A DNA stretch of 64,000 nt from Gammaproteobacteria bacterium (GCA_965215045.1 OZ244031.1:1581961-1645960); one strand, 5' to 3'. Counted from the stretch's first letter, positions 2,617 through 60,371 are shown. Made by a program: numbers and translations. The notes: generated by a model from the letters alone, not told the origin.

Positions 2617-2633
2617 GAACCGCAGCGTATTGA

Positions 2634-4673
2634 ATGGGCGTGAGCGTCCATTGTCGTGCTGCGGTGTTCCGGCGTTATTGCCGGGGCCAGGGGGTACTGG
2701 TACTGCTGTTGGCAACCGGCACCTGGCTTCCCCTGCCGGTGGCGGCACAAGCGGCACCGGAGCGTCCCTACCGGGTCACCGAGGAGCGCGCCCCGTGCCG
2801 CGACTACCGTCCGCAAAAACAGCTGTTCTGGGGGGATACCCACGTGCACACGGCGTTCTCTGTCGATGCGGGCCTGCAGGACACCCGCAACCGGCCGGCA
2901 GATGCCTACCGCTATGCCCGGGGCGAGCGCCTGGGACTGCAACCGTACGATGAGCAGGGGCGCCCGCTGCGTTTTTCGCAGTTGCGGGAACCGCTGGATT
3001 TCACCGTCGTCAGCGACCATGCCGAAAATTTGGGCATGGTCGCCGTGTGCACGACACCGGGTTACAAGGGGTATGACTCCTTCACCTGTACCTCCTTCAG
3101 AAAACGACCGCGTCTGTCCTATTTTTTCAGTGCCGGCATGACGCTGGGCAGCCGCTACCTGGCCGAGCGTTACTCGTGGCTGGGTTTCCTGGGAAAACTG
3201 ACGGACCCGAACCGGCCACCGCCGGCCCTGTGCGGGGAGGACGGCCGGGACTGCCGGCAATTGCGCCGGGCCCGCTGGCGGCAGATCCAGGAAGCGGCGG
3301 AGGCGGCCTATGATCGCAGCCCCGCCTGCAGTTTCACTTCTTTTGTCGGTTACGAGTGGACCGGGAACGAGGCGGTGAACCTGCACCGCAACGTGATCTT
3401 CCGCAATCGCAATGTCACGGAGCGGCCGATCAGTTACATGGATGAGAGTACCCCGGAGAAGTTGTGGCAGGCCCTGCAAAGCGAGTGCCTGGAGGCGGGC
3501 AAGGGCTGTGACGTGCTGGCCATTCCGCATAACTCCAATCTCAGTGACGGCCAGATGTTCCGGCCCTGGACGGGCGGTGCCGGCGATTACAGCCCGGGGC
3601 AGGCGCGCCTGCGCGTGCGCATCGAACCGATGTTCGAGATCATGCAACACAAGGGCGATGCGGAATGCTGGTACGGGGTGGGAGTCCGGGATGAATTCTG
3701 CGCCTTTGAAAAGCTGCCCTACGATCGCTTCGTCGGCCGGTTTTTCCGCGGTCTGCGCGAGCATCCCGAACCCCGCGATGGCTATGCGCGGGACATCCTG
3801 GCCCAGGGCATGCGCTATTTTCGGGGCATCGGCGTCGATCCCTACCAGGTGGGTTTTATCGGCAGCAGCGATACGCACCTGGGCACGCCGGGGGCGGTGG
3901 AGGAGACCGGCCACCAGGGCCACGGCGGTGCCGGCAAGATGAGTTTTGGCGAAGTGCAGCCGGGTCTGCCGGATGACCTGGAGTACAACCCCGGCGGACT
4001 GGCGGCGGTGTGGGCGGAGGAGAATACGCGCGATTCGCTGTTTGCGGCACTGCGTCGGCGCGAGGCCTACGGCACCAGCGGGCCGCGCATCCGGCTGCGT
4101 TTTTTCGGCGGCTGGAACTATGACCCGCAGCTGTGCAGCCGTGAGCTGCGGGAACTGGTCGCCCAGGGCTATGCGCGGGGTGCGCCGATGGGCGGCGTCC
4201 TGGAGGCGGCAGCGGACGGTGCGCGCCCGGGTTTCGTGGTCGATGCCTGGCGCGCCGCCGGCGGGGAGGATGCACCGCTGCAGCAGCTGCAGATCATCAA
4301 GGGTTGGCTCGATGCCCGGGGCCGGGCGCAGGAAAAAATCTACACGGTGGCGGGCGATCCTGACAACGGGGCCGGCGTGGACCTGGCGACGTGTCGGAGA
4401 CGGGGCAGCGGCTATGACCGCCTGTGCCAGGTGTGGCAGGACCCCGATTTCGAGAGCGGGCAGCAGGCGTATTATTACGCGCGGGTGCTGCAGAACCCGG
4501 GCTGCCGCTGGAGTGCGCACATCTGCGCAGCGCATCAAGTTGACTGCAAACGGCCCCAGACCATCACCGAGGGCCTGGAGGGCTGCTGTGCACGGGAGCA
4601 CCGGCCGGTGATCCAGGAGCGGGCCTGGAGTTCGCCGATCTGGTATCGTCCCGCCGCCCGGGCCGCGCGCTGA
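2634..4673 (+). CDS. Secreted DUF3604-like protein, paralog 2
   Basis: 679 aa, same conserved blocks as paralog 1 (FWGDTHVHTAFSVD, DFTVVSDHAE, IPHNSNLSDG...). Signal-like N-terminus ends VAAQAA. Starts 18 nt after paralog 1. Confidence 0.8.
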   Translation: MGVSVHCRAAVFRRYCRGQGVLVLLLATGTWLPLPVAAQAAPERPYRVTEERAPCRDYRPQKQLFWGDTHVHTAFSVDAGLQDTRNRPADAYRYARGERLGLQPYDEQGRPLRFSQLREPLDFTVVSDHAENLGMVAVCTTPGYKGYDSFTCTSFRKRPRLSYFFSAGMTLGSRYLAERYSWLGFLGKLTDPNRPPPALCGEDGRDCRQLRRARWRQIQEAAEAAYDRSPACSFTSFVGYEWTGNEAVNLHRNVIFRNRNVTERPISYMDESTPEKLWQALQSECLEAGKGCDVLAIPHNSNLSDGQMFRPWTGGAGDYSPGQARLRVRIEPMFEIMQHKGDAECWYGVGVRDEFCAFEKLPYDRFVGRFFRGLREHPEPRDGYARDILAQGMRYFRGIGVDPYQVGFIGSSDTHLGTPGAVEETGHQGHGGAGKMSFGEVQPGLPDDLEYNPGGLAAVWAEENTRDSLFAALRRREAYGTSGPRIRLRFFGGWNYDPQLCSRELRELVAQGYARGAPMGGVLEAAADGARPGFVVDAWRAAGGEDAPLQQLQIIKGWLDARGRAQEKIYTVAGDPDNGAGVDLATCRRRGSGYDRLCQVWQDPDFESGQQAYYYARVLQNPGCRWSAHICAAHQVDCKRPQTITEGLEGCCAREHRPVIQERAWSSPIWYRPAARAAR

Positions 4674-4677
4674 GTCG

Positions 4678-6693
4678 ATGCGCCGGTCCCCGCAGCTCCT
4701 GCCGCAAGGGAGTGTCCTGGTACCGCTGTTGGCGGCCTGTGCCTGTGCCGTCCTGCCGGTTGCAGCGCAGTCACCGGAGCGGCCGTACGCGCTCACCGAG
4801 GCGCGCGAGCCCTGCCGCGATTACCGCCCGCAAAAACAGCTGTTCTGGGGCGATACCCACGTGCATACGGCTTTTTCCTTCGATGCCGGCATCTATGGAA
4901 CCCGCAACCGGCCGGAAGATGCCTACCGCTATGCCCGCGGCGAGCGCCTGGGATTGCAGCCCTACGATGCGCAGGGCCGGGCACTGCGTTTTTCGCAATT
5001 GCGGGAACCGCTGGATTTCACCGTGGTCAGCGACCATGCCGAAGGTCTGGGCATTGCGGGTGTTTGCGGCGTGCCGGGCTACGAGGGCTATGACTCCTTC
5101 ACCTGCACCTCCTACAGGGAACGGCCGCGTCTTGCGCGTTTCCTGATGTTGCAACTCCCGCTCATTCGCCGCCACCTGGCCGAGCGTTACTCGTGGCTGG
5201 GTTTTCTGAAAAGACCGGAGGTCCGGGTGCGAGAGCCGCCCGCCCTGTGCGGGGAGGGGGGCAGGGACTGCCTGCAGGGCGGCCGGGAAATCTGGCGGCA
5301 GATCCAGGAAGCGGCAGAGCGCGCCTACGACCGCACTTCCGCCTGCCGTTTCACTTCTTTTGTCGCTTATGAGTGGACCGGGGATACGCGGGTGAACCTG
5401 CACCGCAACGTGATCTTCCGCAACCGCGAGGTGCTGGCACGGCCGATCAGTTACCTGGATGCGCCTACCCCGGAGGAGTTGTGGCAGGGGCTCCAACGCG
5501 ATTGCCTGGATGCCGGCAACGGCTGTGACTTGTTGGCCATTCCCCACAATGCCAATCTCAGCGACGGCCAGATGTTCCGACCCTGGGAGGGCGATACAAG
5601 CGATGATGCCCTGGCCCGGGCGCAGCTGCGCGCCCGCATCGAACCGGTGTTGGAAATCATGCAGCGCAAGGGGGACTCGGAGTGCTGGTTCGGGGCGGGG
5701 GTAGAGGATGAATTCTGCGCCTTTGAGAAACTGCCCTACGATCGATTTGCCGGAAGAACCTTCCGCAGTCTCGGGGCAGCACCCGAACCCGGCGATGGCT
5801 ATGCGCGGGACATCCTGGCCCGGGGCATGCGCTATTTTCGGGGTCTCGGCGTCGACCCCTACCGGCTGGGTTTTATCGGCAGCACGGATACACACCTGGG
5901 CATTTCGGGGGCGGTGGAGGAGGGCGGCTACCAGGGGCATGGCGACCCCGGGAATACGATACTGGGAAAATTGCCGGCGGCGGGTCTGCCGGATGCCCTG
6001 GAGTACAACCCCGGGGGATTGGCGGCGGTGTGGGCGGAGGAGAATACGCGCGATTCGCTGTTTGCGGCACTGCGTCGGCGCGAGGCCTACGGCACCAGCG
6101 GGCCGCGCATCCGGCTGCGCTTTTTCGGCGGCTGGGACTATGATCCGCAGCTGTGCCAGCAAGGAGTGCAGCACCTGGTCGACCGGGGTTATGCGCAGGG
6201 TGTGCCGATGGGCGGTGTCCTGGAGCCGGCCATGGACGGTGCCCGCCCGGGTTTCGTGGTCGATGCCTGGCGGGCCGCCGGCGGGGAAAACGCACCGCTG
6301 CAGCAGCTGCAGATCATCAAGGGTTGGCTCGATACCCGGGGCCGGGCCCAAGAAAAAATCTACACCGTGGCGGGTGAGCCCCGAAACGGGGCCGGTGTGG
6401 ACCTGGCGACATGCCGGGGACGGGGCAGCGGCTATGACCGCCTGTGCCAGGTGTGGGAGGACCCCGATTTCGAGAGCGGCCAGCAGGCGTATTATTATGT
6501 GCGGGTGCTCCAGAACCCGAGCTGCCGCTGGAGTGCGCGCATCTGCAATGCGCACCGGGTCGACTGCCAGCGGCCCGGGACCATCACCGGGGGACTTGCG
6601 GGCTGCTGTGCACCGGAGCACCGGCCGGTGATCCAGGAGCGGGCCTGGAGTTCACCGATCTGGTATCGTCCCGTCGCCCGGGCACCACACTGA
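4678..6693 (+). CDS. Secreted DUF3604-like protein, paralog 3
   Basis: 671 aa, same blocks (FWGDTHVHTAFSFD, DFTVVSDHAE, IPHNANLSDG). Starts 5 nt after paralog 2. Confidence 0.8.
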   Translation: MRRSPQLLPQGSVLVPLLAACACAVLPVAAQSPERPYALTEAREPCRDYRPQKQLFWGDTHVHTAFSFDAGIYGTRNRPEDAYRYARGERLGLQPYDAQGRALRFSQLREPLDFTVVSDHAEGLGIAGVCGVPGYEGYDSFTCTSYRERPRLARFLMLQLPLIRRHLAERYSWLGFLKRPEVRVREPPALCGEGGRDCLQGGREIWRQIQEAAERAYDRTSACRFTSFVAYEWTGDTRVNLHRNVIFRNREVLARPISYLDAPTPEELWQGLQRDCLDAGNGCDLLAIPHNANLSDGQMFRPWEGDTSDDALARAQLRARIEPVLEIMQRKGDSECWFGAGVEDEFCAFEKLPYDRFAGRTFRSLGAAPEPGDGYARDILARGMRYFRGLGVDPYRLGFIGSTDTHLGISGAVEEGGYQGHGDPGNTILGKLPAAGLPDALEYNPGGLAAVWAEENTRDSLFAALRRREAYGTSGPRIRLRFFGGWDYDPQLCQQGVQHLVDRGYAQGVPMGGVLEPAMDGARPGFVVDAWRAAGGENAPLQQLQIIKGWLDTRGRAQEKIYTVAGEPRNGAGVDLATCRGRGSGYDRLCQVWEDPDFESGQQAYYYVRVLQNPSCRWSARICNAHRVDCQRPGTITGGLAGCCAPEHRPVIQERAWSSPIWYRPVARAPH

Positions 6694-6703
6694 GGATCAT
6701 GTA

Positions 6704-8725
6704 ATGATGAATCGACATTCGCATCCCCTGCCGCTGAGCGGTATCTCGGTACTGCTGCTGGGGGCGTTCGCCTGGGCCTCCCCGCCGCTTGCAGCACAGG
6801 CACCGGAGCGGCCGTACACGATCACCGAGGAGCGCGAGCCCTGCCGCGATTACCGTCCGGAAAAACAGGTGTTCTGGGGCGACACCCACGTGCACACCGC
6901 GTACTCTTTTGACGCCTCTATGTGGGACACGCGCAATGACCCGGACGACGCCTACCGCTTCGCCCGGGGCGAGCCGGCGGGCATCCTGCCGTATAGCGAA
7001 CAGGGCGAGGCACAGCGCTGGGTGCAATTGCCCCGGCCGCTGGATTTTGCCATGGTCTCCGACCATGCCGAGCACCTGGGGCGCATCGATATCTGCGCGC
7101 GCAAAGACCTGCTGGGGTACTATTCGATCAACTGCAGGATCTTTCGCGGCCGCCCGCAACTGAGCTTTTTCACCAACCTGGCGATGCCGCTGATTCTGAA
7201 GGAACTCACGCTGCAGAACGATAATTGGCGCTTCCTGAAAAAGTTGTTTCGCGCCGAACAACCGCCGCTGTTCTGCGGCCCTGACAACCGGCGCTGTTAC
7301 GAAGCCGCGCGGCCGGTCTGGAAGCGCATCCAGGCGGCGGCGGAGCGCGCTTACGATCGCAGCACCGCCTGCCGTTTTACTTCTTTTGTCGGCTATGAAT
7401 GGACCGCCTACACCGGCGGCAATATTCATCGCAACGTGGTGTTCCGCAATGAGCGGGTGCCGGCGGACCCGATCAGTGCCAACGAGGCCCCCGAGGCTCC
7501 CGGGCTGTGGCGGGCCTTGGATCGCGAGTGCATCCAGGGGGTTCCCGGTTGCGATGTGCTGGTCATCCCGCACAACAGTAACGTGAGCCGGGGGCTGATG
7601 TTCCCCGACCCGGGCGGGGAGCGCACCGCACCGCACAACCCGCGCACCGCGGTGCTGAGTGCCCGTTTTGATCGCCTGTTCGAGATCATGCAGCACAAGG
7701 GCGATTCCGAGTGCTGGTACGGACAGGGGATCGCCGATGAACTGTGCGCCTTTGAGAAGCTGAGTTACGACGCCCTGGGTGCCCAGATCAGCCCGCGCTT
7801 TGCCATCCCCAGTCATCCCAGCGATGGTTTCCTGCGCCCCGTGCTGTCGTCGGGCCTGGTCTACCAGCGGCAATTCGGCGTCAATCCCTACCGCCTGGGC
7901 GTGATCGCGAGCACGGACAATCACCTGGGCACGCCGGGTTCGGTCGAGGAATACAATTTTGTCGGGCACACGGGCATCTCTGCCAACAGGAATTTCCAGA
8001 ACATGAGTGCCGGTCTGCGCCTGCCGGATTCGCCGAACTTCAATCCCGGCGGGCTGGCGGCGGTGTGGGCGGAAGAGAATACGCGCGACTCGCTGTTTTC
8101 TGCGATGCGCCGCCGCGAGACGTACGGCACCAGCGGCCCGCGGCTCGAGGTGCGCTTTTTCGGCGGTTGGAACTATCCCGCAGACTTGTGTCGCAACCCC
8201 GACTGGGTGAAGGAGGCGTATGCGGGCGGGGTGCCGATGGGCGGTGTCCTGGCCGCGGATGCCGCACTCGGAACCGCCGCTGCACCGCGCTTTTTGCTGT
8301 ATGCGCGTCGCGACCCGGGTGTCGCCGGGCATCCGGGTCTGCCGCTGCAATACATGCAGCTTATCAAGGGCTGGGTAGATGAGCGGGGCACCGCACAGGA
8401 GAAGGTCTACGACGTCGCCGGCAACCCCGACAGCGAGGCCGGGGTGGACAGTGACTGTCGGCCGCACGGTGCGGGATACCAGCGGCTGTGCCAGGTGTGG
8501 AGCGACCCGGACTTTGATGCGGGGCGCGATGCCTGGTACTACGCGCGCGTGTTGCAGAATCCGAGCTGCCGCTGGAGTGCTCGCTGGTGCAGTGCGCAGG
8601 GGGTGAACTGCGAGGATCCGGCATCGGTTCCCGCGGGCATGGAAGCCTGTTGTGCAGCGGATCATCGCCGGGTGATCCGGGAGCGGGCCTGGACTTCGCC
8701 GATCTGGTACCAGGCGCAGCCGTGA
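6704..8725 (+). CDS. Secreted DUF3604-like protein, paralog 4 (most divergent)
   Basis: 673 aa with the same core motifs (FWGDTHVHTAYSFD, DFAMVSDHAE, IPHNSNVSRG, MQHKGDSECWYG, C-terminal CCAADHRRVIRERAWTSPIWY). Signal-like N-terminus. Confidence 0.8.
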   Translation: MMNRHSHPLPLSGISVLLLGAFAWASPPLAAQAPERPYTITEEREPCRDYRPEKQVFWGDTHVHTAYSFDASMWDTRNDPDDAYRFARGEPAGILPYSEQGEAQRWVQLPRPLDFAMVSDHAEHLGRIDICARKDLLGYYSINCRIFRGRPQLSFFTNLAMPLILKELTLQNDNWRFLKKLFRAEQPPLFCGPDNRRCYEAARPVWKRIQAAAERAYDRSTACRFTSFVGYEWTAYTGGNIHRNVVFRNERVPADPISANEAPEAPGLWRALDRECIQGVPGCDVLVIPHNSNVSRGLMFPDPGGERTAPHNPRTAVLSARFDRLFEIMQHKGDSECWYGQGIADELCAFEKLSYDALGAQISPRFAIPSHPSDGFLRPVLSSGLVYQRQFGVNPYRLGVIASTDNHLGTPGSVEEYNFVGHTGISANRNFQNMSAGLRLPDSPNFNPGGLAAVWAEENTRDSLFSAMRRRETYGTSGPRLEVRFFGGWNYPADLCRNPDWVKEAYAGGVPMGGVLAADAALGTAAAPRFLLYARRDPGVAGHPGLPLQYMQLIKGWVDERGTAQEKVYDVAGNPDSEAGVDSDCRPHGAGYQRLCQVWSDPDFDAGRDAWYYARVLQNPSCRWSARWCSAQGVNCEDPASVPAGMEACCAADHRRVIRERAWTSPIWYQAQP

Positions 8726-17477: not shown

Positions 17478-17561
17478 AACTCTGCTCCTATGGTGATATT
17501 GCAGAAAAAACCTTCTTAATCATAGCAAAATAAAAACTTTTTGACATCCCCCTGAAAATAC

Positions 17562-17790
17562 GCCCATCGTGGCCCCCGCGTACGGGGGCGATGAATGCTT
17601 GGGAGCAGCGCGCACCGGGGCCGCCCATCGTGGCCCCTGCGTACGGGGGCGATGAATGCTTGGGAGCAGCGCGCACCGGGGCCGCCCATCGTGGCCCCTG
17701 CGTACGGGGGCGATGAATGCTTGGAAGCAGCGCGCACCGGGGCCGCCCATCGTGCGCCCCCGCGTACGGGGCACGGGCGACCCGGTACCG
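17562..17790. repeat. 61-bp tandem direct repeat, 3 full copies plus 1 partial
   Basis: Unit GCCCATCGTGGCCCC(C/T)GCGTACGGGGGCGATGAATGCTTGGGAGCAGCGCGCACCGGGGCC starts at 17562, 17623, 17684 and 17745. Each unit holds the hairpin GCCCCCG-CGTA-CGGGGGC. Confidence 0.9.
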
Positions 17791-28399: not shown

Positions 28400-28585
28400 G
28401 GGAACTTGAGCGAGGCCGCGGGGGAGCGCGCGGTGATTTGACGGCACTGTTTTCTTGGGGAACTGCGGGGGAGCACGCGGTGATTTGACGGCACTGCTTT
28501 CTTGGGGAACTGCGGAGGAGTGCGCGGTGATTTGACGACTGCCTCCCTGGGAAACTGCGGGGGAGCGCACTGCCGGAGGGGGGTG
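28400..28585. repeat. About 47-bp imperfect tandem repeat, 3 copies plus 1 partial, between ftsX and comEC
   Basis: Copies start near 28400, 28457, 28504 and 28549. Shared core GGGAACTGCGGGGGAGCRCGCGGTGATTTGACGRCACTG. Confidence 0.8.
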
Positions 28586-35777: not shown

Positions 35778-36363
35778 GAAACAACGCGTCCTCTTGCCAG
35801 GCGGTGAGTTGTGGAGCTATCCCGGGGCCTTCGCCCGGCAGGCGGATGACTGGCTGCGCGCCTTGCTGGACAAGGTCGCCTGGCGCAGTGAGAAACTGCA
35901 TCTCTTCGGGCGCTGGGTCGAAGCACCGCGGCGCATCGCCTGGTACGGCGACCCGGGTGCCGAGTACTGTTATTCGGGACGCCGTCATGCGCCCCGCCCC
36001 TGGATCGTCCCGCTGCAGGAAATGCGTACCGCGGTCCAAAAGCTGCTGGGGGCTTCTTTCAACAGTGCCCTGCTTAACCTGTACCGCGATGGCAATGACG
36101 CCATGGGCTGGCACAGCGATGATGAGCCGGAACTGCAACCGCGGCCCCTGATCGCCTCGCTGAGTTTCGGTGCCACCCGGCGTTTTGATCTGCGTCCGCG
36201 CGGCGGCGGCGCAATCGTCTCCCTGCAACTGGAACACGGTTCCCTGCTGGTGATGGGCGGCGATACGCAGCGTCACTGGCGGCACCGCGTACCGCGCAGT
36301 GCCCGCTGCCAGGCACCGCGGGTGAACGTGACGTTCCGGCGGGTGCGCGGGGTGCGTGCATGA
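35740..36363 (+). CDS. AlkB-like Fe(II)/2-oxoglutarate-dependent dioxygenase (alternative GTG start at 35767)
   Basis: LYRDGNDAMGWHSDDE...SLSFGATRRFDLR...LEHGSLLVMGGDTQRHWRHRVP matches the HxD...H motifs of AlkB/2OG-FeII oxygenases. Confidence 0.7.
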   Translation: MALCWRSNRVSSEKQRVLLPGGELWSYPGAFARQADDWLRALLDKVAWRSEKLHLFGRWVEAPRRIAWYGDPGAEYCYSGRRHAPRPWIVPLQEMRTAVQKLLGASFNSALLNLYRDGNDAMGWHSDDEPELQPRPLIASLSFGATRRFDLRPRGGGAIVSLQLEHGSLLVMGGDTQRHWRHRVPRSARCQAPRVNVTFRRVRGVRA

Positions 36364-38192
36364 TGCCGGCCGCGGACCGGGACTTCGACTCGCGCCGGCT
36401 GATCGGCGGCCTGCAGGAGCACCCCGGGATCTACCAGATGCTGGACCGCGAGGGCGAAGTGCTGTACGTGGGCAAGGCGCGCAATCTCAAGAAGCGCGTC
36501 GCCAGCTACTTTCAAAAGCGCGCACTGAACCGCCGCACGCTGGCGATGCTGGCGCGCGTGCGGGAGGTACAGGTCACGGTGACCGCCAGTGAGACGGAAG
36601 CACTGTTGCTGGAGCAAAACCTGATCAAGGAATACCATCCGCCGTACAACATCCTGTTGCGAGACGACAAGTCTTATCCCTGCATTCGCCTGTCAGAAGA
36701 GGAGTTTCCGCGGCTGTCTTTTTACCGCGGCGCGCGGCGCAGTGGTGCGCGCTATTTCGGCCCGTATCCCGGCGCGTCGGCGGTGCGCGACAGTTTGAAT
36801 TTTCTCTACCGCACCTTTCGCATACGGCAGTGTGAAAACAGCGTGTTTCGCAATCGTTCCCGCCCCTGCCTGCAATACGAGATCAAACGTTGCAGCGCCC
36901 CTTGCGTCGGTTTGATCAGTGCTGCGGAGTACGCCGAGAGTGTCGCGGATGCCGAAATGTTTCTGCAGGGCAACAACCGCGAGCTGCTCACGGGTCTCAG
37001 CGAGCGCATGGAGTCCGCTGCTGCGGCCGAGCACTACGAACGCGCCGCCGAGTTGCGCGACCAGGTCGCCGCGCTGAACCAGCTTCAGGAAAAGCAGTAC
37101 ATCGAGGGCGAGAAGGGCGATGTCGATATTCTCGCGGCGGCGGCGGCACCGGACTGTGTCTCGGTGCAGATGCTCTACGTGCGCGCCGGCCGTGTCATCG
37201 GCTCGCGCGGCTATTTCCCGCGCCTGCCCCTGGCGGAAAATCCGGGCGAGGCGCTGGCGGCATTTATTCCCGGCTTTTACCTGCGTGCGGCGGCCGAGAT
37301 CCCGCGCAAGATCCTGTTGAGTCACCCGGTGGCCGGCACCCGTGCGCTGGAGGAAGCCCTGGAGCGCCGCGCCAGTCACAAGGTACGCCTGCAATCCCGC
37401 GTGCAGGGTGCCCGACTGCGCTGGTTGCGCCTGGCCCGGGAGACCGCCGAACAGAACTTGCAGGGACGCATGGCGGGCGAGAGGCAGACCATTGCCCAGT
37501 TGCAGGAATTGCGCGAGGCCTTGCAACTGGAAGAGACGCCGCGCCGCCTGGAATGCTTTGATATCAGTCACAGCGGCGGCATAGAGACCGTGGCTTCCTG
37601 CGTGGCTTTTGACCAGGAAGGGGCGCGCAAAAGCGATTACCGCCGTTATATCATCCGCGGTATTGCGCCGGGAGACGATTATGCCGCCCTGCGCCAGGCC
37701 CTGTTGCGGCGCTACCGGCGGGTGCAGACGGGGCAGGGGGGCGCCCTGCCCGACGTGTTGCTGGTCGACGGCGGACCGGGGCAATTGCGCCAGGCGCGCG
37801 AAGTGTGGGACGAGCTGGGACTCGGCGCGGCGGCATTGCTGGGCGTCGCCAAGGGGCGCAGTCGCCGCCCGGGGCGGGAACGCTTGTGGACCGGCTCCGG
37901 GAAGGAGCTCCGGCTGGCACCGGACTCCGGTGCACTGCACCTGGTACAGCGTATCCGCGATGAGGCCCACCGTTTTGCCATCCAAGGGCACCGCCGCCGG
38001 CGCAGTGCCCGCAGTGGGGCCTCGCCGCTGGCGGAAGTCCCCGGCATCGGCCCCAAGCGCCGCCGCATGCTGTTGCGTTCTTTCGGGGGTTTGCAGGGCA
38101 TTCGCAAGGCGGCCCCGGAAGAGATTGCACGCACGCCGGGTATCAGCCTTAAAATGGCCGAAGATATTCTCGCGCACTTGCGGCGCAATTGA
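36360..38192 (+). CDS. uvrC: Excinuclease ABC subunit C
   Basis: N-terminal GIY-YIG (GIYQMLDREGEVLYVGKARNLKKR), UvrBC domain, C-terminal HhH. Confidence 0.9.
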   Translation: MMPAADRDFDSRRLIGGLQEHPGIYQMLDREGEVLYVGKARNLKKRVASYFQKRALNRRTLAMLARVREVQVTVTASETEALLLEQNLIKEYHPPYNILLRDDKSYPCIRLSEEEFPRLSFYRGARRSGARYFGPYPGASAVRDSLNFLYRTFRIRQCENSVFRNRSRPCLQYEIKRCSAPCVGLISAAEYAESVADAEMFLQGNNRELLTGLSERMESAAAAEHYERAAELRDQVAALNQLQEKQYIEGEKGDVDILAAAAAPDCVSVQMLYVRAGRVIGSRGYFPRLPLAENPGEALAAFIPGFYLRAAAEIPRKILLSHPVAGTRALEEALERRASHKVRLQSRVQGARLRWLRLARETAEQNLQGRMAGERQTIAQLQELREALQLEETPRRLECFDISHSGGIETVASCVAFDQEGARKSDYRRYIIRGIAPGDDYAALRQALLRRYRRVQTGQGGALPDVLLVDGGPGQLRQAREVWDELGLGAAALLGVAKGRSRRPGRERLWTGSGKELRLAPDSGALHLVQRIRDEAHRFAIQGHRRRRSARSGASPLAEVPGIGPKRRRMLLRSFGGLQGIRKAAPEEIARTPGISLKMAEDILAHLRRN

Positions 38193-38778: not shown

Positions 38779-40167
38779 TCAATCCGATCGGGCACCCGGT
38801 GTCGTCGCCGCCGGCGATGCTGTAGCGGTGGCGGCAGGGGCTGTATCCAGGTGCCGGCGGTCCCAGCAGTTTTCGTGGTAATGCCGGCTGCCCCGGTAAT
38901 AAAAGAATATGCCGACCAGGTAGCTGAAGAAGGCGGCAGCCAGGCCCCAGCGTATGGAGTTCTTGCCGAAGACAGGATGCGTGAGGTCACTGACCCAGCC
39001 GACCAGGAACGGCCCCAGGCTCAGGCCGATCAGGCTCATGAACAGCATCAAGATGGCGCAGGCCAGGGTGCGTTGCGTGGGTGCCACCAACGCTTGGGCG
39101 GCGACATAAGAGGGGGCGGCCCACCAGGTGCCGACGACACCGGACAGGATGGCGAACAAGGCTGCGACCGGCAGCTGGAACTGGCCGAAAAACAAGTTCT
39201 GCCCCTCCGGCCACAGCAGGAACAGCAGCAGCAGGGGCAGCGACAGTATCAGGCTCAGCATCGGCACGAGCATTTGCCAGGCGCGGTCCCTCATCACCAT
39301 CCGGTCGCAGAGTAAGCCGCCCAGCAGGGAGCCGGCCAGGGCGCTGACCGTGCCCAGCAGACCGACGACAATGCTGGCGTGAAACAGGCTCATTTCATGC
39401 ACGCGGATTAAGAAACTGACCTGCCAGTGCCCGAGTCCGTAACCGGCCAGCGAGGCAAAACCAGCACCCAGCAACAGGGCGCGCATCGCCGGGATATTCC
39501 ACATCTCGCGGAAAGTGCGAAAGGCACCTTGTTGTTCATCGTCTGCCGTCGTCGTTTGCTCATCCCAGTACCCCTTGGCCGGCTCGCGCAGGGTGAAACG
39601 GATCAGCAGGGCGAGCACCAGCCCGGGGGCACCCAGGACCAGGAAGGCCCTGCGCCAGCCGTAATTTTCCGCGATCCAACCGCCGCCGCCGAAAGCGAGC
39701 ATCATGCCGATAAAAGTGCCGCAGGCAAAAATCGACATCGCCGTGGAACGGTCCTTGGGCGGATAATAATCGGCGACCAGGGATTGGGAGGGCGGAGTAC
39801 CGCCGGCCTGGCCGATGCCGACGCCGATGCGGAACAACAGCAGGTGCCAGTAGTTTCCAGCGACCGCGCAGAGCACGGTCATCAGGCTCCATACGCCCGC
39901 CGCCCATGCCAGCACATTGCGGCGCACGCCCCGGTCCGCCCACATGGCCGCCGGAATACTGAGCGTGACATAGAACACGGCGAAGACCAGGCCGTACAGA
40001 ATGCCCATTTGTGTATCGCTGGCCTGGAATTCCTCTTTCATAGGCTCCACGAGCACGGAAAGAAGTTGCCGGTGGAGGAAATTAAAGACGTACGTCAGTG
40101 TCAGGATGCCCAGTGCATAATGCGCATGGGCGCGGGAAATTTCAGTTAAAGATGAATCTGTGCGCAC
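38779..40167 (-). CDS. MFS transporter
   Basis: 462 aa, 12 TM, with MFS signature regions (GRRNVLAWAAGVWSLMTV..., second half repeat). Confidence 0.75.
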   Translation of the reverse strand: MRTDSSLTEISRAHAHYALGILTLTYVFNFLHRQLLSVLVEPMKEEFQASDTQMGILYGLVFAVFYVTLSIPAAMWADRGVRRNVLAWAAGVWSLMTVLCAVAGNYWHLLLFRIGVGIGQAGGTPPSQSLVADYYPPKDRSTAMSIFACGTFIGMMLAFGGGGWIAENYGWRRAFLVLGAPGLVLALLIRFTLREPAKGYWDEQTTTADDEQQGAFRTFREMWNIPAMRALLLGAGFASLAGYGLGHWQVSFLIRVHEMSLFHASIVVGLLGTVSALAGSLLGGLLCDRMVMRDRAWQMLVPMLSLILSLPLLLLFLLWPEGQNLFFGQFQLPVAALFAILSGVVGTWWAAPSYVAAQALVAPTQRTLACAILMLFMSLIGLSLGPFLVGWVSDLTHPVFGKNSIRWGLAAAFFSYLVGIFFYYRGSRHYHENCWDRRHLDTAPAATATASPAATTPGARSD

Positions 40168-40234
40168 AAGAGCTCCCGGAAAACAAGTCTGCAGACTGCT
40201 AAAATAACACGTTATGTGATGCGGTGCTTTCCCG

Positions 40235-40308
40235 GGCTGGATGGCAGAGTGGTTATGCAGCGGACTGCAACTCCGTGTACGCCGGTTCGATTCCGACTCC
40301 AGCCTCCA
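40235..40308 (+). tRNA. tRNA-Cys (anticodon GCA)
   Basis: Acceptor GGCTGGA/TCCAGCC plus TCCA. Anticodon arm GCGGA-CTGCAAC-TCCGT, T-loop TTCGATT. One C-A mismatch in the T stem. Confidence 0.8.
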
Positions 40309-40328
40309 TATTTGCCGCGCTCTCTAAG

Positions 40329-40512
40329 CAGGGGGGAGTGGAAAGCAGAGGGGGAGTGGAAAGCAGAGGGGGAGTGGAGAGCAGGGGGGGAGTGGAGAGC
40401 AGGGGGGAGTGGAGAGCAGAGGGGGAGTGGAAAGCAGAGGGGGAGTGGAGAGCAGAGGGGGAGTGGAAAGCAGAGGGGGAGTGGAAAGCAGAGGGGGAGT
40501 GGAGAGCAGGGG
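40329..40512. repeat. 18-bp G-rich tandem repeat, about 11 copies, between tRNA-Cys and tRNA-Leu
   Basis: Unit GGGGGAGTGGA(A/G)AGCAGA, with occasional 17/19-bp variants. The G5-7 runs recur every 18 nt on the + strand. Confidence 0.9.
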
Positions 40513-40596
40513 GAGCATGAAAACAGCATGCCGGGCGGGTGGTTTGATTTTCCTGGCACCGGTGATGAGAGGCACAAGAGTAGCCTGGCAGTGAAC

Positions 40597-40683
40597 GCCC
40601 GGGTGGCGAAATTGGTAGACGCAGGGGACTTAAAATCCCCGGACTTGCAAGTCATGTCGGTTCGAGTCCGGCCCCGGGCACCA
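40597..40683 (+). tRNA. tRNA-Leu (anticodon TAA), long variable arm
   Basis: 87 nt, GCCCGGG...CCCGGGC-ACCA. Anticodon arm GGGGA-CTTAAAA-TCCCC. Same cysT-leuZ order after pgsA as in E. coli. Confidence 0.9.
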
Positions 40684-40741
40684 GGAACGGGCGGGGAATG
40701 CTCCCCGGCTCGCAAGACCCCGGCTATATGATGCTGGCGTT

Positions 40742-41000
40742 GAGTATAGGGCTTGGGATTGGTTTATATATACGCTGTCGTTTAGTATAGGGCTAGGGAT
40801 TGGTTTATATATACGCTGTCGTTTAGTATAGGGCTAGGGATTGGTTTATATATACGCTGTCGTTTAGTATAGGGCTAGGAATTGGTTTATATTATTCTAT
40901 CGTTTAGTATAGGGCTAGGGGTTGGTTTATATTATTCTATCATTTAGTATAGGGCTTGGAATTGGTTTATATATACGCTATCGTTTAGTATAGATATTGA
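40742..41000. repeat. 41-bp AT-rich tandem repeat, about 6.5 copies
   Basis: Unit GTTTAGTATAGGGCTAGGGATTGGTTTATATATACGCTGTC at 40742, 40780, 40821, 40862, 40902 and 40942, with a partial copy to about 41000. Copies 4-5 carry the variant TATTATTCTATC. Confidence 0.9.
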
Positions 41001-41060
41001 AATTTTATGCTATTATGTGTTATCTACAATCATTTTCCTCCAAACACGGGTCTGAGCAAA

Positions 41061-42254
41061 ATGGCAGAGCATCCACAAGCAAGCTCTCCCGATCGGGAAC
41101 GCACCGGCCGCTATGTACAGCAGCCACAGGGATACCGCGCTTTTATCCCCAGGGCATTGCCTCCCGATCCCCCCTTGCGGCTCAGCCCGGGGATGCAGCA
41201 ACTGCTCTCCCAAGCGGACCGTGCCCTGGGGCGGCTGAGTGGTTCCGCGGGGGTATTGCCCAGCCTGGGTTTGTTTGTCTACGAGATGCACGTGCGCAAG
41301 GAGGCGGTGTTATCCAGCCGGATCGAGGGAACCCGGAGTTCCCTGCAGGATTTGCTGATTGCCGAGGCCGGCGTGCTCCCATCCGGGCGTCCCGATGATG
41401 TCGCCGAAGTCACCAATTATGTGCGGGCTTTCAACTATGGTCTGTATCGACTGGAGGAGCTTCCCGTGTGTGTTCGGCTATTATGCGAAATGCACGAGCT
41501 CTTGCTGCAGGGGGTGCGGGGGGCCCCGGCCCGGCCCGGGCTGCTGCGCGAGTCTCAAAATTGGCTCGGGCCCGCCGGGTGCGATCGGAGCGAAGCCACT
41601 TTTATACCTCCTCCTCCCGCCGAGGTGCCTGCCGCCCTGGGGGAGCTGGAAAAGTTTCTGAATGCCCCAGGCGGCTTACCCCCACTGGTCTGGATTGGCC
41701 TGGCGCATGCCCAATTTGAAACCATTCATCCCTTCCTGGATGGCAATGGGCGCCTGGGCCGCCTGCTGATTAGCTTGCTGCTGGCGCAACAGCAGATCTT
41801 GCAAAAGCCGGTTCTCTACCTGTCGGATTATTTTTATCGCCACCGCTTGGAGTACTACGATCGTCTCCAGGCCGTACATGAGCAGGGCGACTGGGAAGGA
41901 TGGATCGAATTCTTTCTGCAGGGGGTCGCCGATGTGAGTCAGGATGCGGCCGAAACCATTCAGCACATCTATGCTCTGCGTGAAAAACATCGTGCTGAGA
42001 TTAATATGGCATTGGGGCGGGCTGCCGGCAACGGGCTGCGTATCCTGGAGTTCCTTTACTCGCAGCCGCTGTTCACCGTGCCCCGGGTGCAGGGACACCT
42101 GGGTGTCAGTTATGCATCGGCCAATCAACTGGTATCGCGCCTGGAAAAATTGGGGATCCTGGAGGAAATCAGTGGCCGTAAACGCAATCGCGTGTACCGC
42201 TATTCCTCTTACCTGGAACTCTTTGAAAAAAATCCTCCGCCGAACCAGGCCTGA
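41061..42254 (+). CDS. Fic family protein (class-II-like; putative AMPylating toxin-type enzyme) with C-terminal winged-helix region
   Basis: Start at MAEHPQ. Fic_N-type N-terminus (YVQQPQGYRAFIPRALPP), inhibitory-helix motif SSRIEG (S/TxxxE(G/N)), catalytic motif HPFLDGNGRLGR. Confidence 0.8.
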   Translation: MAEHPQASSPDRERTGRYVQQPQGYRAFIPRALPPDPPLRLSPGMQQLLSQADRALGRLSGSAGVLPSLGLFVYEMHVRKEAVLSSRIEGTRSSLQDLLIAEAGVLPSGRPDDVAEVTNYVRAFNYGLYRLEELPVCVRLLCEMHELLLQGVRGAPARPGLLRESQNWLGPAGCDRSEATFIPPPPAEVPAALGELEKFLNAPGGLPPLVWIGLAHAQFETIHPFLDGNGRLGRLLISLLLAQQQILQKPVLYLSDYFYRHRLEYYDRLQAVHEQGDWEGWIEFFLQGVADVSQDAAETIQHIYALREKHRAEINMALGRAAGNGLRILEFLYSQPLFTVPRVQGHLGVSYASANQLVSRLEKLGILEEISGRKRNRVYRYSSYLELFEKNPPPNQA

Positions 42255-42272: not shown

Positions 42273-42824
42273 TTATTGGCCCGCCGGGCATCCCTCTGCG
42301 TCACAATCGTCGGCCGGGTGCTCCGGTGCCAGGTTTTCCGTCTGCTCCTGTGCCGGTTCTTCTCGCAGCAGTGCCATGATCTCTGCGCCCAGTTCCATGT
42401 CCTGCACGGCACCGAATTTCTGTTTCCTGCATCTTCCCTGGCGGTCGACCAGGATTTGCGTCGGCGTGCCCTGCATCCCGTAAGCGGCCATGGTTTGCGG
42501 GATGCCGCCTCCTTGGGCGGGTGCATCGATGCCGACCGGAAAGAAAATGCGGTATTCGTGCAGGAAGGCCTCCAGGGCTTGGCGGCTGCCCTGGGCGGCG
42601 TGGTGTTCGAATACCGTGTGCAAGCCGATGACCGTGACTTCGTCCTGGCGGAAGGTCTGGGCGACGCGCCCCGCCTGGGGCAGGGCATGCGATACGCAGC
42701 CCGGGCAGAGCATCTGGAAAGCCTCGATCAAAACGACCCGGCCGCGCAGTTCCCGCAGGGTGCAGGGGCGATCGGTATTCAGCCATTCGCTGGTTTGCAG
42801 TTCCGGGGCGGGTTTGAATGCCAT
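42273..42824 (-). CDS. TlpA/ResA-like thiol-disulfide oxidoreductase (thioredoxin fold, CPGC)
   Basis: 183 aa with a redoxin-like VVLIEAFQMLCPGCVSHALP CxxC motif. Confidence 0.65.
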   Translation of the reverse strand: MAFKPAPELQTSEWLNTDRPCTLRELRGRVVLIEAFQMLCPGCVSHALPQAGRVAQTFRQDEVTVIGLHTVFEHHAAQGSRQALEAFLHEYRIFFPVGIDAPAQGGGIPQTMAAYGMQGTPTQILVDRQGRCRKQKFGAVQDMELGAEIMALLREEPAQEQTENLAPEHPADDCDAEGCPAGQ

Positions 42825-57790: not shown

Positions 57791-57841
57791 GTGCGGCCAG
57801 GAGCTGCAACGGGCGTCAGTTTGCCCCGTATAATAAATAAG

Positions 57842-57875
57842 TGCCCCGCCCGGTTGCGGGGCATTTTTGCCTCGA
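57842..57875 (+). terminator. Second hairpin plus T-run (tandem terminator or 5'-UTR attenuator of the FmdB gene)
   Basis: TGCCCCGC-CCGGTT-GCGGGGCA followed by TTTTTG, 23 nt upstream of the ATG at 57898. Confidence 0.55.
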
Positions 57876-57897
57876 ACTAGCGCGCGGATGCCCTGCC

Positions 57898-58593
57898 ATG
57901 CCAATTTACGAATACAGCTGTTCACACTGCGCCCATGAGCTGGAAGCCCTGCAGGCGATGGGTGAACCGCTGCTGGTTAAATGTCCCGCCTGCGGTGAGA
58001 GGAAGCTGCAGAAAAAACTGAGTGCCGCCGCCTTTCATCTCAAGGGGCAGGGGTGGTACAAGACGGATTTCCAGGACCAGGGGAAAAAGAACGCCGCAGA
58101 AGGCGCGGATGCCGCCGGCACCGGGGATGCAAAAGAAGATGCCGCACGGTCTGCGGCCGCCCAAGCCGGTGAGCGCGGCGATGGTGCCTCTAGGGCTGGT
58201 GAGCGCGGCGATGGTGCCTCTAGGGCTGGTGAGCGCGGCGACGGCAACTCTCGGGCAGGCGAGCGCGGCGATGGTGCCTCTAGGGCCGGTGAGCGCGGCG
58301 ATGGTGCCTCCCGGGCCGGCGAGCGCGGCGATGGCAGCTCTCGGGCCGGTGAGCGCGGGGATGGTGCCTCTAGGGCCGGCGAGCGCGGCGATGGGGCCTC
58401 TAGGGCCGGTGAGCGCGGGGATGGCAGCTCTAGGGCCGGTGAGCGCGGCGATGGCAGCTCTCGGGCCGGTGAGCGCGGGGATGGTGCCTCTAGGGCCGGC
58501 GAGCGCGGCGATGGCACCGCGACTGTAAACAACAGCACCCGGGAGACGTCCTCCCGCTCCTCCGGAAGCGACTCCCAGGGCGCCTCCGCCTGA
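57898..58593 (+). CDS. FmdB-family zinc-ribbon protein with 12x decapeptide (AGERGDGASR) C-terminal repeat tail
   Basis: MPIYEYSCSHCAHELEALQAMGEPLLVKCPACGERKL is the FmdB CxxC...CxxC zinc ribbon. This is followed by 30-bp in-frame DNA repeats across 58165..58525. Confidence 0.75.
   Translation: MPIYEYSCSHCAHELEALQAMGEPLLVKCPACGERKLQKKLSAAAFHLKGQGWYKTDFQDQGKKNAAEGADAAGTGDAKEDAARSAAAQAGERGDGASRAGERGDGASRAGERGDGNSRAGERGDGASRAGERGDGASRAGERGDGSSRAGERGDGASRAGERGDGASRAGERGDGSSRAGERGDGSSRAGERGDGASRAGERGDGTATVNNSTRETSSRSSGSDSQGASA
58165..58525 (+). repeat. 30-bp near-perfect tandem repeat x12 (in-frame, inside the FmdB-family CDS)
   Basis: Unit GGTGAGCGCGGCGATGGTGCCTCTAGGGC(T/C), with minor variants (GGCAGCTCT, GGCAACTCT). 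Confidence 0.9.
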
Positions 58594-60371
58594 TGTTCAC
58601 GCGCAGTCGCTATTGCGGCGATTTGCGCCCCGAACATACAGGCGAGCGGGTGCGCCTGTGCGGTTGGGTCGACCGCCGGCGCGACCACGGGGGCGTGATC
58701 TTTCTCGACCTGCGCGACCGTTCCGGGGTCGTGCAACTGGTATTTGACCCCGATGCAGGGGAGCATTTTCACCGCGCCGAACAGGTGCGCGGTGAATTTG
58801 TTCTCTGGGCGGAGGGCACCGTGCGCCTCCGCAGTGAAGACACCCGCAACCCCAAGATGCCGACCGGCGAGGTGGAGGTGCTGGGTGCTTCCCTGGAAAT
58901 TCTCAACACCGCGGAAACCCCACCTTTTCAACTCGATGAATATATTGAAGCCGGCGAGGAACTGCGTCTTCGGCACCGCTACCTGGACCTGCGGCGTCCG
59001 GCCATGCAAGGCGGGCTGCTGCTGCGCGCGCGCTTGTTGTCCTTGTTGCGCAAGGCCTTGGAACGGGAGGGTTTCTGGGAGGTGGAGACGCCGGCGCTGA
59101 CCCGTGCCACGCCCGAAGGGGCGCGGGATTACCTGGTGCCCAGCCGCCTGGATCCCGGCACCTTCTACGCGCTGCCGCAGTCGCCGCAGCTGTTCAAACA
59201 ATTGCTGATGATCGGCGGCATCGACCGCTACTTCCAGGCGGCGCGCTGTTTTCGCGACGAGGATTTGCGCGCTGACCGGCAGCCGGAATTTACCCAGATC
59301 GATATCGAGGCCTCCTTTGTCGACGAGGAGGCGATCATGGAAATCACCGAGCGTATCTTGCGCGAGGCTTTCAGCGAGTTGCTGGGCGAGGAACTGCCGG
59401 CCTTCCCGCGCATGGAATACGCCGAGGCGATGCGCCGTTTCGGCAGTGACTGCCCGGATTTGCGCAATCCCCTGGAACTGGTCGAGATCTCAGAGCTGAT
59501 GCGCGAGGTGGAATTCAATATTTTTCGTCAAGCGGCGCGGGATGCAGATTCCCGCCTGGCGGTATTGCGCGTGCCGGGCGGCGGTGCCATGAGTCGTGCG
59601 GAGATCGACGCCTGCACCGAATTCGTGGCGGAATTCGGCGCCGGGGGTCTGGCCTGGATTCGCGTCAATGATCGTTCTGCCGGCATCCGGGGTCTGCAGT
59701 CACCTATTTTGAAATTCATTCCCGCGGAGCAGACGTTGGCGCTGCTTGCGTGTTGTGCCGCAGAGAGCGGCGACCTGCTCTTCTTCGGTGCGGGTCCGAT
59801 CGCCACGGTCAACCAGTCGCTGGGGGCCCTGCGCGACCGGCTGGGTGCCGAGCGCGGGCTTTTGCGCGCGGGCTGGGCACCGCTCTGGGTGCATTCCTTC
59901 CCGATGTTCGAGCGTGACGAGGCGGGCGGTTTTATGGCCCTGCACCATCCCTTCACCGCGCCGCAAACCGAAGATCCGCAAGCGGTGCAACAGGATCCCG
60001 GGGCGCAACTGTCGCGCGCTTATGACGTGGTTTTGAACGGCCACGAGATCGGCGGTGGTTCAGTGCGTATCCACAAACCGGAGATGCAGCGGACGGTGCT
60101 CCAGGTCCTGGGTTTTGAACGCGCCGAGGCGGAGCAGCGTTTTGGTTTCCTGTTGGAAGCCCTGCGTTACGGGGCACCGCCCCACGGTGGCATCGCCCTG
60201 GGACTGGACCGCCTGGCGATGTTGTTCAGCGGTGCCGGGTCGATTCGCGAGGTGATCGCTTTTCCCAAGACGCAGAGCGGCTCCTGTCCCCTGACGGGAG
60301 CGCCCCGGGAAGTGGAAGCCGAACGTCTGCGCGAATTGCGACTGCGCCTGCAAGCGCGCGGGGCACGTTGA
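58593..60371 (+). CDS. aspS: Aspartate--tRNA ligase
   Basis: 592 aa with an N-terminal OB fold and class-II motifs (FRDEDLRADRQPEFTQID, GGGSVRIH, GLDRL). Confidence 0.95.
   Translation: MFTRSRYCGDLRPEHTGERVRLCGWVDRRRDHGGVIFLDLRDRSGVVQLVFDPDAGEHFHRAEQVRGEFVLWAEGTVRLRSEDTRNPKMPTGEVEVLGASLEILNTAETPPFQLDEYIEAGEELRLRHRYLDLRRPAMQGGLLLRARLLSLLRKALEREGFWEVETPALTRATPEGARDYLVPSRLDPGTFYALPQSPQLFKQLLMIGGIDRYFQAARCFRDEDLRADRQPEFTQIDIEASFVDEEAIMEITERILREAFSELLGEELPAFPRMEYAEAMRRFGSDCPDLRNPLELVEISELMREVEFNIFRQAARDADSRLAVLRVPGGGAMSRAEIDACTEFVAEFGAGGLAWIRVNDRSAGIRGLQSPILKFIPAEQTLALLACCAAESGDLLFFGAGPIATVNQSLGALRDRLGAERGLLRAGWAPLWVHSFPMFERDEAGGFMALHHPFTAPQTEDPQAVQQDPGAQLSRAYDVVLNGHEIGGGSVRIHKPEMQRTVLQVLGFERAEAEQRFGFLLEALRYGAPPHGGIALGLDRLAMLFSGAGSIREVIAFPKTQSGSCPLTGAPREVEAERLRELRLRLQARGAR

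Follow-up and report, generated by a model that had tools for sequence, protein, structure and literature searches.

A G-rich 18-bp tandem array in the tRNA-Cys–tRNA-Leu spacer of a gammaproteobacterium, probably a noncoding minisatellite

We describe an array of G-rich 18-bp units that is repeated head to tail in the spacer between the tRNA-Cys and tRNA-Leu genes of a gammaproteobacterium. The array is present in a second strain, is absent from the other Cys–Leu spacers surveyed, carries no coding, Rfam or secondary-structure signal and lies in a window (the whole stretch of DNA analyzed, 64,000 nucleotides) with a high density of tandem arrays. We think it reasonably probable that the array is a neutral or near-neutral noncoding minisatellite in a cotranscribed spacer that is cut out during tRNA processing. 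Taken at face value, it is an ordinary kind of sequence in an unusual place. A functional, copy-number-variable element of the operon, acting either as a quadruplex (G4)/R-loop rheostat for tRNA-Leu(UAA) or as a nuclease-resistant decoy spacer RNA, is in our judgment unlikely. The positions of the array and the surrounding features are given in Table 1.

Table 1. Features of the tRNA locus and other tandem arrays in the window
Feature	Position	Strand	Evidence or context
uvrC	36360-38192		Upstream of the tRNAs
pgsA			Upstream of the tRNAs, with uvrC
MFS transporter gene	38779-40167	minus	Upstream of the tRNAs
Candidate extended -10 promoter element TGCTAAAAT	40197..40205	+	Conserved block in L038; putatively for the tRNA-Cys/tRNA-Leu transcript
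tRNA-Cys (anticodon GCA)	40235..40308	+	ARAGORN; Rfam RF00005, 57.5 bits
Pyrimidine-rich unique 3' trailer of tRNA-Cys, TATTTGCCGCGCTCTCT, 17 nt	40309..40325	+	Sequence
18-bp G-rich tandem array	40326..40513	+	TRF, pattern search, unit parse, repeat-family search
Unique 83-nt 5' leader of tRNA-Leu	40514..40596	+	Sequence
Small hairpin GCATG...CATGC in the tRNA-Leu leader	40515-40531	+	Sequence
tRNA-Leu (anticodon TAA)	40597..40683	+	ARAGORN; Rfam, 55.5 bits
AT-rich tandem array of a 41-bp unit, 6.6 copies, unrelated to the G-rich array; lies 3' of tRNA-Leu, before the Fic gene	40725..40993	.	TRF score 403; units parsed in L036, L037, L162 and the window
Fic-family gene	41007-42254		Downstream, after the 41-bp array
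Redoxin-like gene	42273-42824	minus	Downstream of the Fic gene
S10 ribosomal-protein operon			Downstream of the redoxin-like gene
61-bp array, 3.4 copies	17561		TRF score >=200
47-bp array, 3.3 copies	28418		TRF score >=200
Coding 30-bp array	58165		TRF score >=200

Results

Anatomy of the Array

TRF called a single array at this place, with a period of 18, 10.6 copies, 94% matches, a score of 313 and the consensus AAGCAGAGGGGGAGTGGA. Parsed into units, the plus strand contains ten full copies and one partial copy of GGGGGAGTGGA(A/G)AGCAG(A/G). The pattern GGGGGAGTGGARAGCAGA, searched with up to three mismatches allowed, matched ten times in succession (40332-40510), each time with at most one mismatch, and nowhere else in the 64-kb window; chance expectation was 0.17 matches, and none of 100 dinucleotide-preserving shuffles reached ten. 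Units start 18 nt apart with the single exception of a 17-nt unit at 40390, and besides this 1-nt length variant the variation is confined to A/G at unit positions 12 and 18, giving three unit types (A..A five times, G..A twice and G..G three times). The 188 nt of the array are 60% G, 29% A, 6% C and 5% T on the plus strand, or 89% purine. All of the variation seen within the array keeps it purine-rich and leaves the G runs in place, a point that we count against a neutral reading.

An earlier reading of the same DNA, made from the letters alone (the sequence-only reading), had reported about 11 copies of a G-rich repeat between tRNA-Cys and tRNA-Leu, with G runs of 5–7 nt. The unit parse gave the same run lengths, ARAGORN and Rfam agreed on the position, and the repeat itself stands, with the count now put at ten full units plus a partial one (10.6 by TRF). 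The remark that the unit length is a multiple of three holds for the dominant 18-nt unit but not for the 17-nt unit, nor for the last unit of the sister strain, which has an extra G.

Head-to-tail direct repeats of 10–100 bp are the form of bacterial minisatellites, or VNTRs, and the array has this form. A CRISPR array is rejected, as the units abut (18 nt from start to start) and there are no unique spacers between them. Ten near-identical units at regular spacing could also form an iteron-like series of protein-binding sites for a regulator or nucleoid protein acting on the tRNA operon or its neighbors, and a second array does lie 40 nt 3' of tRNA-Leu, beside a Fic gene whose C terminus gives weak HTH matches. 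We nevertheless hold such a role to be very improbable: the 18-bp period is out of helix phase, the unit is without dyad symmetry, neither the unit nor any of its sub-words is enriched elsewhere in the window (a check that also covered Chi-like and dispersed motifs), and there is no candidate binding protein.

The tRNA Operon

Both tRNA genes are on the plus strand, so the G-rich strand is the transcribed-sense strand, as the sequence-only reading had proposed. The 288-nt spacer is made up of the 17-nt trailer of tRNA-Cys, the 188-nt array and the 83-nt leader of tRNA-Leu. The tRNA-Cys sequence is identical at 74 of 74 bases in most of 120 metagenomic loci. In relatives, the gene order uvrC-pgsA-(tRNA-Gly)-tRNA-Cys-tRNA-Leu is found, which is widespread in gammaproteobacteria and which we take to be the arrangement of the Escherichia coli glyW-cysT-leuZ operon; in the window, tRNA-Gly is absent at this place and the MFS gene is there instead.

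Upstream of tRNA-Cys, the block CTGC(A/G)GACTG(C/A)TAAAATAACACG is common to the window and a lineage of ~76% nucleotide identity (L038), while the intergenic bases around it differ, and TGnTAAAAT is kept. We read TGCTAAAAT as a putative extended -10 promoter; the consensus promoter scan missed it because its -35 element is weak. Within the Cys–Leu spacer, the same scan found no promoter-like and no terminator-like site, and the 7–50 nt Cys–Leu spacers of relatives allow nothing but cotranscription. Since the spacer scan found neither promoter nor terminator, the simplest reading is that tRNA-Leu would be cotranscribed with tRNA-Cys through the array.

The opposite strand allows another reading. 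There the array reads (UCUGCUYUCCACUCCCCC)n, with 60% C, 29% U, 6% G and 5% A over 188 nt; such an unstructured RNA would suit the loading of Rho ideally and could end antisense transcripts from the redoxin/Fic side before these reach the tRNAs and the MFS gene. The MFS and redoxin genes, which flank the tRNAs, are indeed both on the minus strand. We consider an insulator of this kind, which is proposed from composition, very unlikely, as relatives do without the array.

Two other origins connected with the tRNA genes are rejected. The last 24 nt of tRNA-Leu occur once in the window, with up to three mismatches allowed, and no integrase is found between tRNA-Leu and rpsJ, which speaks against the boundary of a tRNA-targeted island. 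Derivation from a tRNA 3' end, as in the tRNA-linked repeats (TLRs) of E. coli, would leave a shared sequence; the longest strings shared with the array are 6 nt for tRNA-Cys and 7 nt for tRNA-Leu, which is chance level, and 13% of shuffled-unit arrays also reach a 7-nt string shared with a tRNA.

Occurrence in a Sister Strain

A strain that is 97–99% identical to the window at the nucleotide level is represented by an independent Illumina MAG (GCA_964348175.1) and its underlying ENA assembly. One contig of this MAG (L036) enters the array from the tRNA-Leu side through the same 3' junction and ends 2.5 units in. Its part of the array has the variant units GGGTGAGTGGCAAGCAGA, with one extra G at the last junction or unit. 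Because the units vary while the adjacent 83-nt leader and tRNA-Leu look identical to those of the window by eye, change between the strains appears to be concentrated in the repeat. Two short-read contigs of the sister strain (L039 and L040) cover the tRNA-Cys side instead and both end at 40318, 8 nt short of the array; the sequence of L040 past this position is presumably Illumina adapter. Contig breaks on both sides are what is expected of a true long tandem array in short-read assembly.

The sequence-only reading had named a sequencing or assembly artifact as a possible source of the repeat, and an Illumina contig of a second strain has it too. As this contig runs into the same array, the presence of the array does not depend on one assembly and is established; the exact copy number and the G-run lengths rest on a single assembly, in which homopolymer errors could affect the G-run lengths. 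It is true that the runs of 5, 6 and 7 G are prone to long-read homopolymer error and that short-read assemblies do not cross the array. However, coming from the tRNA-Leu side, the assembly of the other strain has the same junction together with at least 2.5 units, and the two-sided breaks fit a genuine array, making misassembly an exceedingly unlikely source of the array or of its length.

Rarity among Cys–Leu Spacers

For comparison, we used 120 JGI metagenome loci that have the identical 5' half of tRNA-Cys. In 91 of the 120, the next gene is tRNA-Leu(TAA) on the same strand, and these loci provide 68 distinct spacer sequences. The 91 Cys–Leu spacers have a median length of 39 nt, a 90th percentile of 129 nt and a maximum of 253 nt, compared with 288 nt here, and their strongest tandem feature is 2.6 copies of a 12-bp unit. 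Among GTDB relatives found via UvrC, Cys–Leu spacers span 23–188 nt; the 188-nt spacer (L001) is C-rich and nonrepetitive, and the array is absent from L001, L004, L005, L007 and L008. The UvrC scan of GTDB genomes found no close relative, the best being a Thiohalobacter MAG with 55% amino acid identity. The nearest other lineages are those of ~85–91% (L162 and L041) and ~76% (L038) nucleotide identity, and their contigs end early: inside the 41-bp array (L162), before the tRNA (L041) and inside tRNA-Cys (L038).

Wider searches gave the same picture. The unit is absent from the 1.49 Mb of fetched loci except for the sister-strain contig, and scans of JGI metagenomes and IMG/VR for a 26-nt pattern of 1.5 units gave no match. 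A blastn search of plasmids and phages with the whole spacer gave no match, with a low-complexity filter that may mask part of the query. The repeat peptide was not found among the called ORFs of a 5.8-billion-protein collection: the search returned 31 matches, and the 15 whose sequences were inspected were all spurious ORFs over the tRNA-Cys/tRNA-Leu of other bacteria, none with the repeat. Among the papers listed in our literature search, we found no bacterial G-rich array inside a tRNA operon spacer, which is a weak negative.

With the array absent from the other spacers and the databases searched, we conclude that the repeat is specific to the lineage and not general to the tRNA spacers of its clade. 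The sequence-only reading had called this a highly unusual tRNA spacer, and in both length and copy number it exceeds all 91 of the comparison set; the alternative that it had allowed for, a repeat present generally in such spacers of the clade, is at odds with the lack of the array from all 91.

Predicted Quadruplexes and RNA Folding

The array has the top G4Hunter score of the window (mean 1.55, peak 2.32) and by far its longest supra-threshold tract. With G4 energies included, ViennaRNA lowered the minimum free energy of the spacer from -48.9 to -111.3 kcal/mol and predicted two five-layer quadruplexes, each built from four consecutive G5 runs; by score (G4Hunter of at least 1.5 together with a quadruplex in the thermodynamic model) the array is thus G4-prone. 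The gain of 62 kcal/mol is the largest on the plus strand. The next array-free scan window gains 19 kcal/mol, and a scan window at 40177, half overlapping the first part of the array, gains 26 kcal/mol. The canonical G3+N1-7 motif is absent because the loops are 13 nt long: a regular-expression search found no instance in the array, and matches need loops of up to 12–15 nt. Mononucleotide shuffles of the array composition also score well with G4 energies (mean -87, SD 17, compared with -111 kcal/mol). As shuffles also gain much G4 energy, the signal reflects composition more than designed spacing. The G4 potential proposed in the sequence-only reading therefore stands as a prediction, with the top score and fold gain of the window, but it lacks the canonical motif and is largely a matter of composition.

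A sense-strand tract of this kind upstream of tRNA-Leu could act as a rheostat, with a G4/R-loop ("G-loop") on the nontemplate strand or in the nascent RNA slowing or aborting transcription and the length of the array tuning the level of tRNA-Leu(UAA). The G4Hunter maximum, the two five-layer quadruplexes with their energy gain and the location of the G-rich strand agree with such a role. So do the scan that found no independent promoter for tRNA-Leu, the breaks of short-read contigs at the array and the low use of TTA, the codon read by tRNA-Leu(UAA), which makes up 17 of 1139 Leu codons (1.5%) in 18 genes of the window. Set against these are the noncanonical motif with its 13-nt loops, the gain of G4 energy in composition-matched shuffles and the room for a weak promoter in the 83-nt leader, and on balance we find the rheostat unlikely.

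Watson–Crick folding gave the opposite of a structured RNA: the spacer at -48.9 kcal/mol is less structured than its shuffles (-54.9 ± 3.0 kcal/mol, z = +2.0). No known RNA family was matched in the spacer by Rfam even at E<=10. The array has 20 GGA triplets in 188 nt, but they are not in hairpin loops, and with no Rfam match at that threshold, membership in a Csr/Rsm sponge RNA family is rejected.

A looser version of the sponge idea is that the processed, purine-rich spacer RNA of ~280 nt persists as a decoy and sequesters a CsrA/RsmA-type GGA-binding protein, Hfq or pyrimidine-rich sRNAs. The operon is of the same type as the one that, by the accounts in PMC8144298 and PMC7154689, is the source of the E. 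coli 3'ETS-leuZ sponge; the GGA triplets are predicted to be single-stranded, and a quadruplex could shield the spacer RNA from exonucleases. This proposal is also unlikely, since there is no match to a CsrB or RsmX/Y/Z-type model, Watson–Crick structure is near zero and the GGA motifs lie outside hairpin loops, the near-identity of the units points to recent expansion and not to a selected RNA, and all other surveyed Cys–Leu spacers are without the array.

Coding Potential

Several frames have ORFs of 61–171 aa across the array, and 18 nt, the length of most units, is divisible by three, so the array could be read as a coding repeat: an 83-aa minus-strand ORF of (LLSTPP)n or plus-strand ORFs of (GEWKAE)n or (GSGKQR)n. 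The sequence-only reading had stated that the ORFs overlap the tRNAs, which is incomplete: the 83-aa ORF (40324-40575) lies entirely in the spacer, although it has no Pfam match and no SD-like sequence. The same two gaps extend to the other candidates, with no Pfam family for ORFs over the repeat and no SD-like sequence before candidate starts by eye. The frame is shifted in every ORF by the 17-nt unit and in the sister strain by its extra G, no gene is called there in the sister-strain contig, and the repeat peptide is missing from those matches in the protein collection that were inspected (15 of 31). The probability of a coding role is in our view close to negligible.

Tandem Arrays Elsewhere in the Genome

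The window has five tandem arrays with a TRF score of at least 200 per 64 kb, and the comparison loci have one in 1.46 Mb. This corresponds to ~78 and 0.7 arrays per Mb, a ~100-fold difference in density, with the reservation that the comparison loci are mostly short-read metagenome contigs, which underrepresent tandem repeats. The 41-bp array downstream of tRNA-Leu has six copies in the window, three in the sister strain (L036) and at least three diverged units in the ~85% identical relative (L162). Tandem arrays in this lineage thus form readily and vary in copy number. They are not necessarily short-lived, because the 41-bp array has been held in place across ~15% divergence. The ~100-fold density of tandem arrays, together with an array upstream of the Fic gene that is kept across species, may be a more interesting lead than the G-rich array itself.

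Discussion

Our preferred explanation, the minisatellite, would work as follows. Slippage during replication, or unequal recombination, would create and lengthen the array within the internal transcribed spacer of a cysT-leuZ-type operon, in a host lineage with a genome unusually permissive of tandem arrays. Transcription would probably start from the promoter upstream of tRNA-Cys and make the array part of the tRNA-Cys/tRNA-Leu precursor. Processing in E. coli serves as the model for the maturation of such a precursor: an RNase E-type enzyme would cleave the AU-rich trailer at UAUUUG, directly after CCA, and RNase P would generate the 5' end of tRNA-Leu. With the spacer discarded in tRNA maturation, the array would be tolerated, and it would carry no sequence-specific function. 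On the G-rich nontemplate strand, quadruplexes or R-loops would be a likely side effect, which may promote further copy-number change and may explain the breaks of short-read assemblies at the array. The 94% matches, the two variable purine positions and the single 1-nt length variant suggest that the expansion is recent. The argument for neutrality, which we regard as the likely state of the array, is one from an absence of evidence for function.

For strain typing, the array is a marker of practical use, and for short-read assembly it is a known pitfall. If it were functional, it would offer a natural bacterial test of how a G4-prone sense-strand tract affects a polycistronic tRNA precursor, both in its transcription and in its processing. 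Such a case could show whether repeat length can tune the supply of a rare-codon tRNA, or whether internal tRNA spacers can evolve into regulatory RNAs, as the 3' spacer of the same operon has in E. coli. Were the decoy version true, the array would parallel, in repeat form, the 3'ETS-leuZ sponge from that operon.

Comparison with Known Systems

Several known systems share some features with the array. The TLRs of E. coli have a much larger unit, ~178 bp at the tyrT locus, far above 18 bp. [quoted passage not shown] The array differs from them in its 18-bp unit and in lacking identity to a tRNA 3' end, with 6–7 nt shared at most. The E. coli glyW-cysT-leuZ transcript yields the sRNA sponge 3'ETS-leuZ (Lalaouna et al. 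2015, as described in PMC8144298 and PMC7154689). Going by these descriptions, the likeness to the array lies in the order of cysT and leuZ by uvrC-pgsA and in a spacer released by tRNA processing as a candidate RNA, whereas the array is in the internal Cys–Leu spacer and not in the 3' trailer, and is a tandem repeat in place of a unique pairing site. To the extent that the cited accounts describe them, the array thus resembles 3'ETS-leuZ and the TLRs in where it lies, with no likeness in sequence or in demonstrated function.

In the tRNA arrays of Entamoeba, too, complex short tandem repeats separate adjacent tRNA genes; isolates differ in the number of repeats, each species has its own repeat sequence, and the function of the repeats is unknown (PMC2652664). 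Those are highly reiterated array units of a eukaryote; here, the repeat is in a single bacterial operon and there is no relation by descent. The Csr/Rsm sponges (CsrB, RsmY and RsmZ) likewise have many GGA motifs in a few hundred nucleotides, comparable to the 20 in 188 nt here, but in the array the motifs are outside loops, no Rfam model applies, no promoter or terminator belongs to the array itself, and its nearly identical units stand in tandem. G-rich minisatellites that owe their instability to quadruplexes are known in eukaryotes, an example being human CEB1 as presented in PMC2673046. In the terms of that account, CEB1 and our array are both G-rich tandem arrays, and the predicted quadruplex potential of ours would promote instability in the same way; CEB1 is eukaryotic, and the quadruplexes of our array have 13-nt loops and are predicted only.

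The bacterial intergenic minisatellites or VNTRs of the kind used for MLVA typing are the class to which we assign the array, favoring an ordinary mechanism over a dedicated function. Like them, it consists of head-to-tail, near-identical noncoding units within the range of 10–100 bp and breaks short-read assemblies; the 2.5 units seen in the sister strain include variant units and a 1-nt difference. Compared with the usual VNTR, it is set apart by its place inside a tRNA operon spacer and by its extreme richness in purines and in G.

Arrest of short-read contigs beside the G-rich array

Both sister-strain contigs that approach the G-rich 18-bp array from the tRNA-Cys side (L039 and L040) end at the identical base, 40318, which lies 8 nt before the first repeat unit, and one of them runs on from there into Illumina adapter. 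This shared stop suggests that coverage is lost systematically at the G-rich tract, either in sequencing or in the library. Five relatives (L001, L002, L005, L008 and L009) carry tRNA-Gly(GCC) between pgsA and tRNA-Cys; in the window, this tRNA is missing at its place before tRNA-Cys (38779-40234), where a divergently oriented MFS transporter gene is found, as it is in the 76% relative (L038). Elsewhere in the window, four tandem paralogous genes encode proteins of 662-679 aa, each matching the whole of DUF3604 with an E-value between about 1e-157 and 1e-162.

A second array and the divergence of the Fic gene

The AT-rich 41-bp array has six copies in the window versus three in the sister strain, and a relative at 84.7% nucleotide identity has at least three diverged 40-bp units, about 70% identical, at the same site. 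The position of the array is maintained between species, with units homogenised lineage by lineage. As the Fic protein shows weak HTH matches at its C-terminus, the array may be the operator or promoter region of the Fic gene. The Fic protein is 88% identical between the window and the L036 strain, while the adjoining redoxin protein is 100% and the flanking DNA 97-99% identical, marking the Fic gene as a local hotspot in which divergence is concentrated.

Abundance and context of tandem arrays

The 64-kb window contains five arrays with a TRF score of at least 200 (about 78 per Mb), and the other fetched loci one across 1.46 Mb; minisatellites appear unusually abundant in this genome, with the comparison set being biased by short-read assembly.

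Coordinates of arrays and associated features
Feature	Window	Other contigs	Context
Paralogous genes	628-8725 (+)		
61-bp x3.4 array	17561-17771		TRF >=200; 1.1-kb intergenic region 5' of tadA-like/purL reading frame
Array	28418-28568		TRF >=200
tRNA-Cys-side break	40309-40318	L039 1-10; L040 1-59	
G-rich 18-bp array	40326-40513		TRF >=200
AT-rich 41-bp array	40725-40993	L036 about 5056-5240; L037 4935-5087; L162 2050-2241	TRF >=200; directly 5' of Fic gene start
Fic gene	41007-42254	L036 3812-5056	
Zn_ribbon_8 (FmdB-like) gene	57841-58593 (+)		
30-bp x11.7 array	58165-58514		TRF >=200; within Zn_ribbon_8 gene
592-aa ORF	58593-60371		immediately 3' of Zn_ribbon_8 gene

The 30-bp array is coding and gives the Zn_ribbon_8 protein a C-terminal (AGERGDGASR)n tail; the 592-aa ORF that follows looks like aspS. 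The unit of the 61-bp array contains a strong palindrome, CATCGTGGCCCCCGCGTACGGGGGCGATG, and the array resembles what a REP/BIME-like element would look like after tandem amplification.
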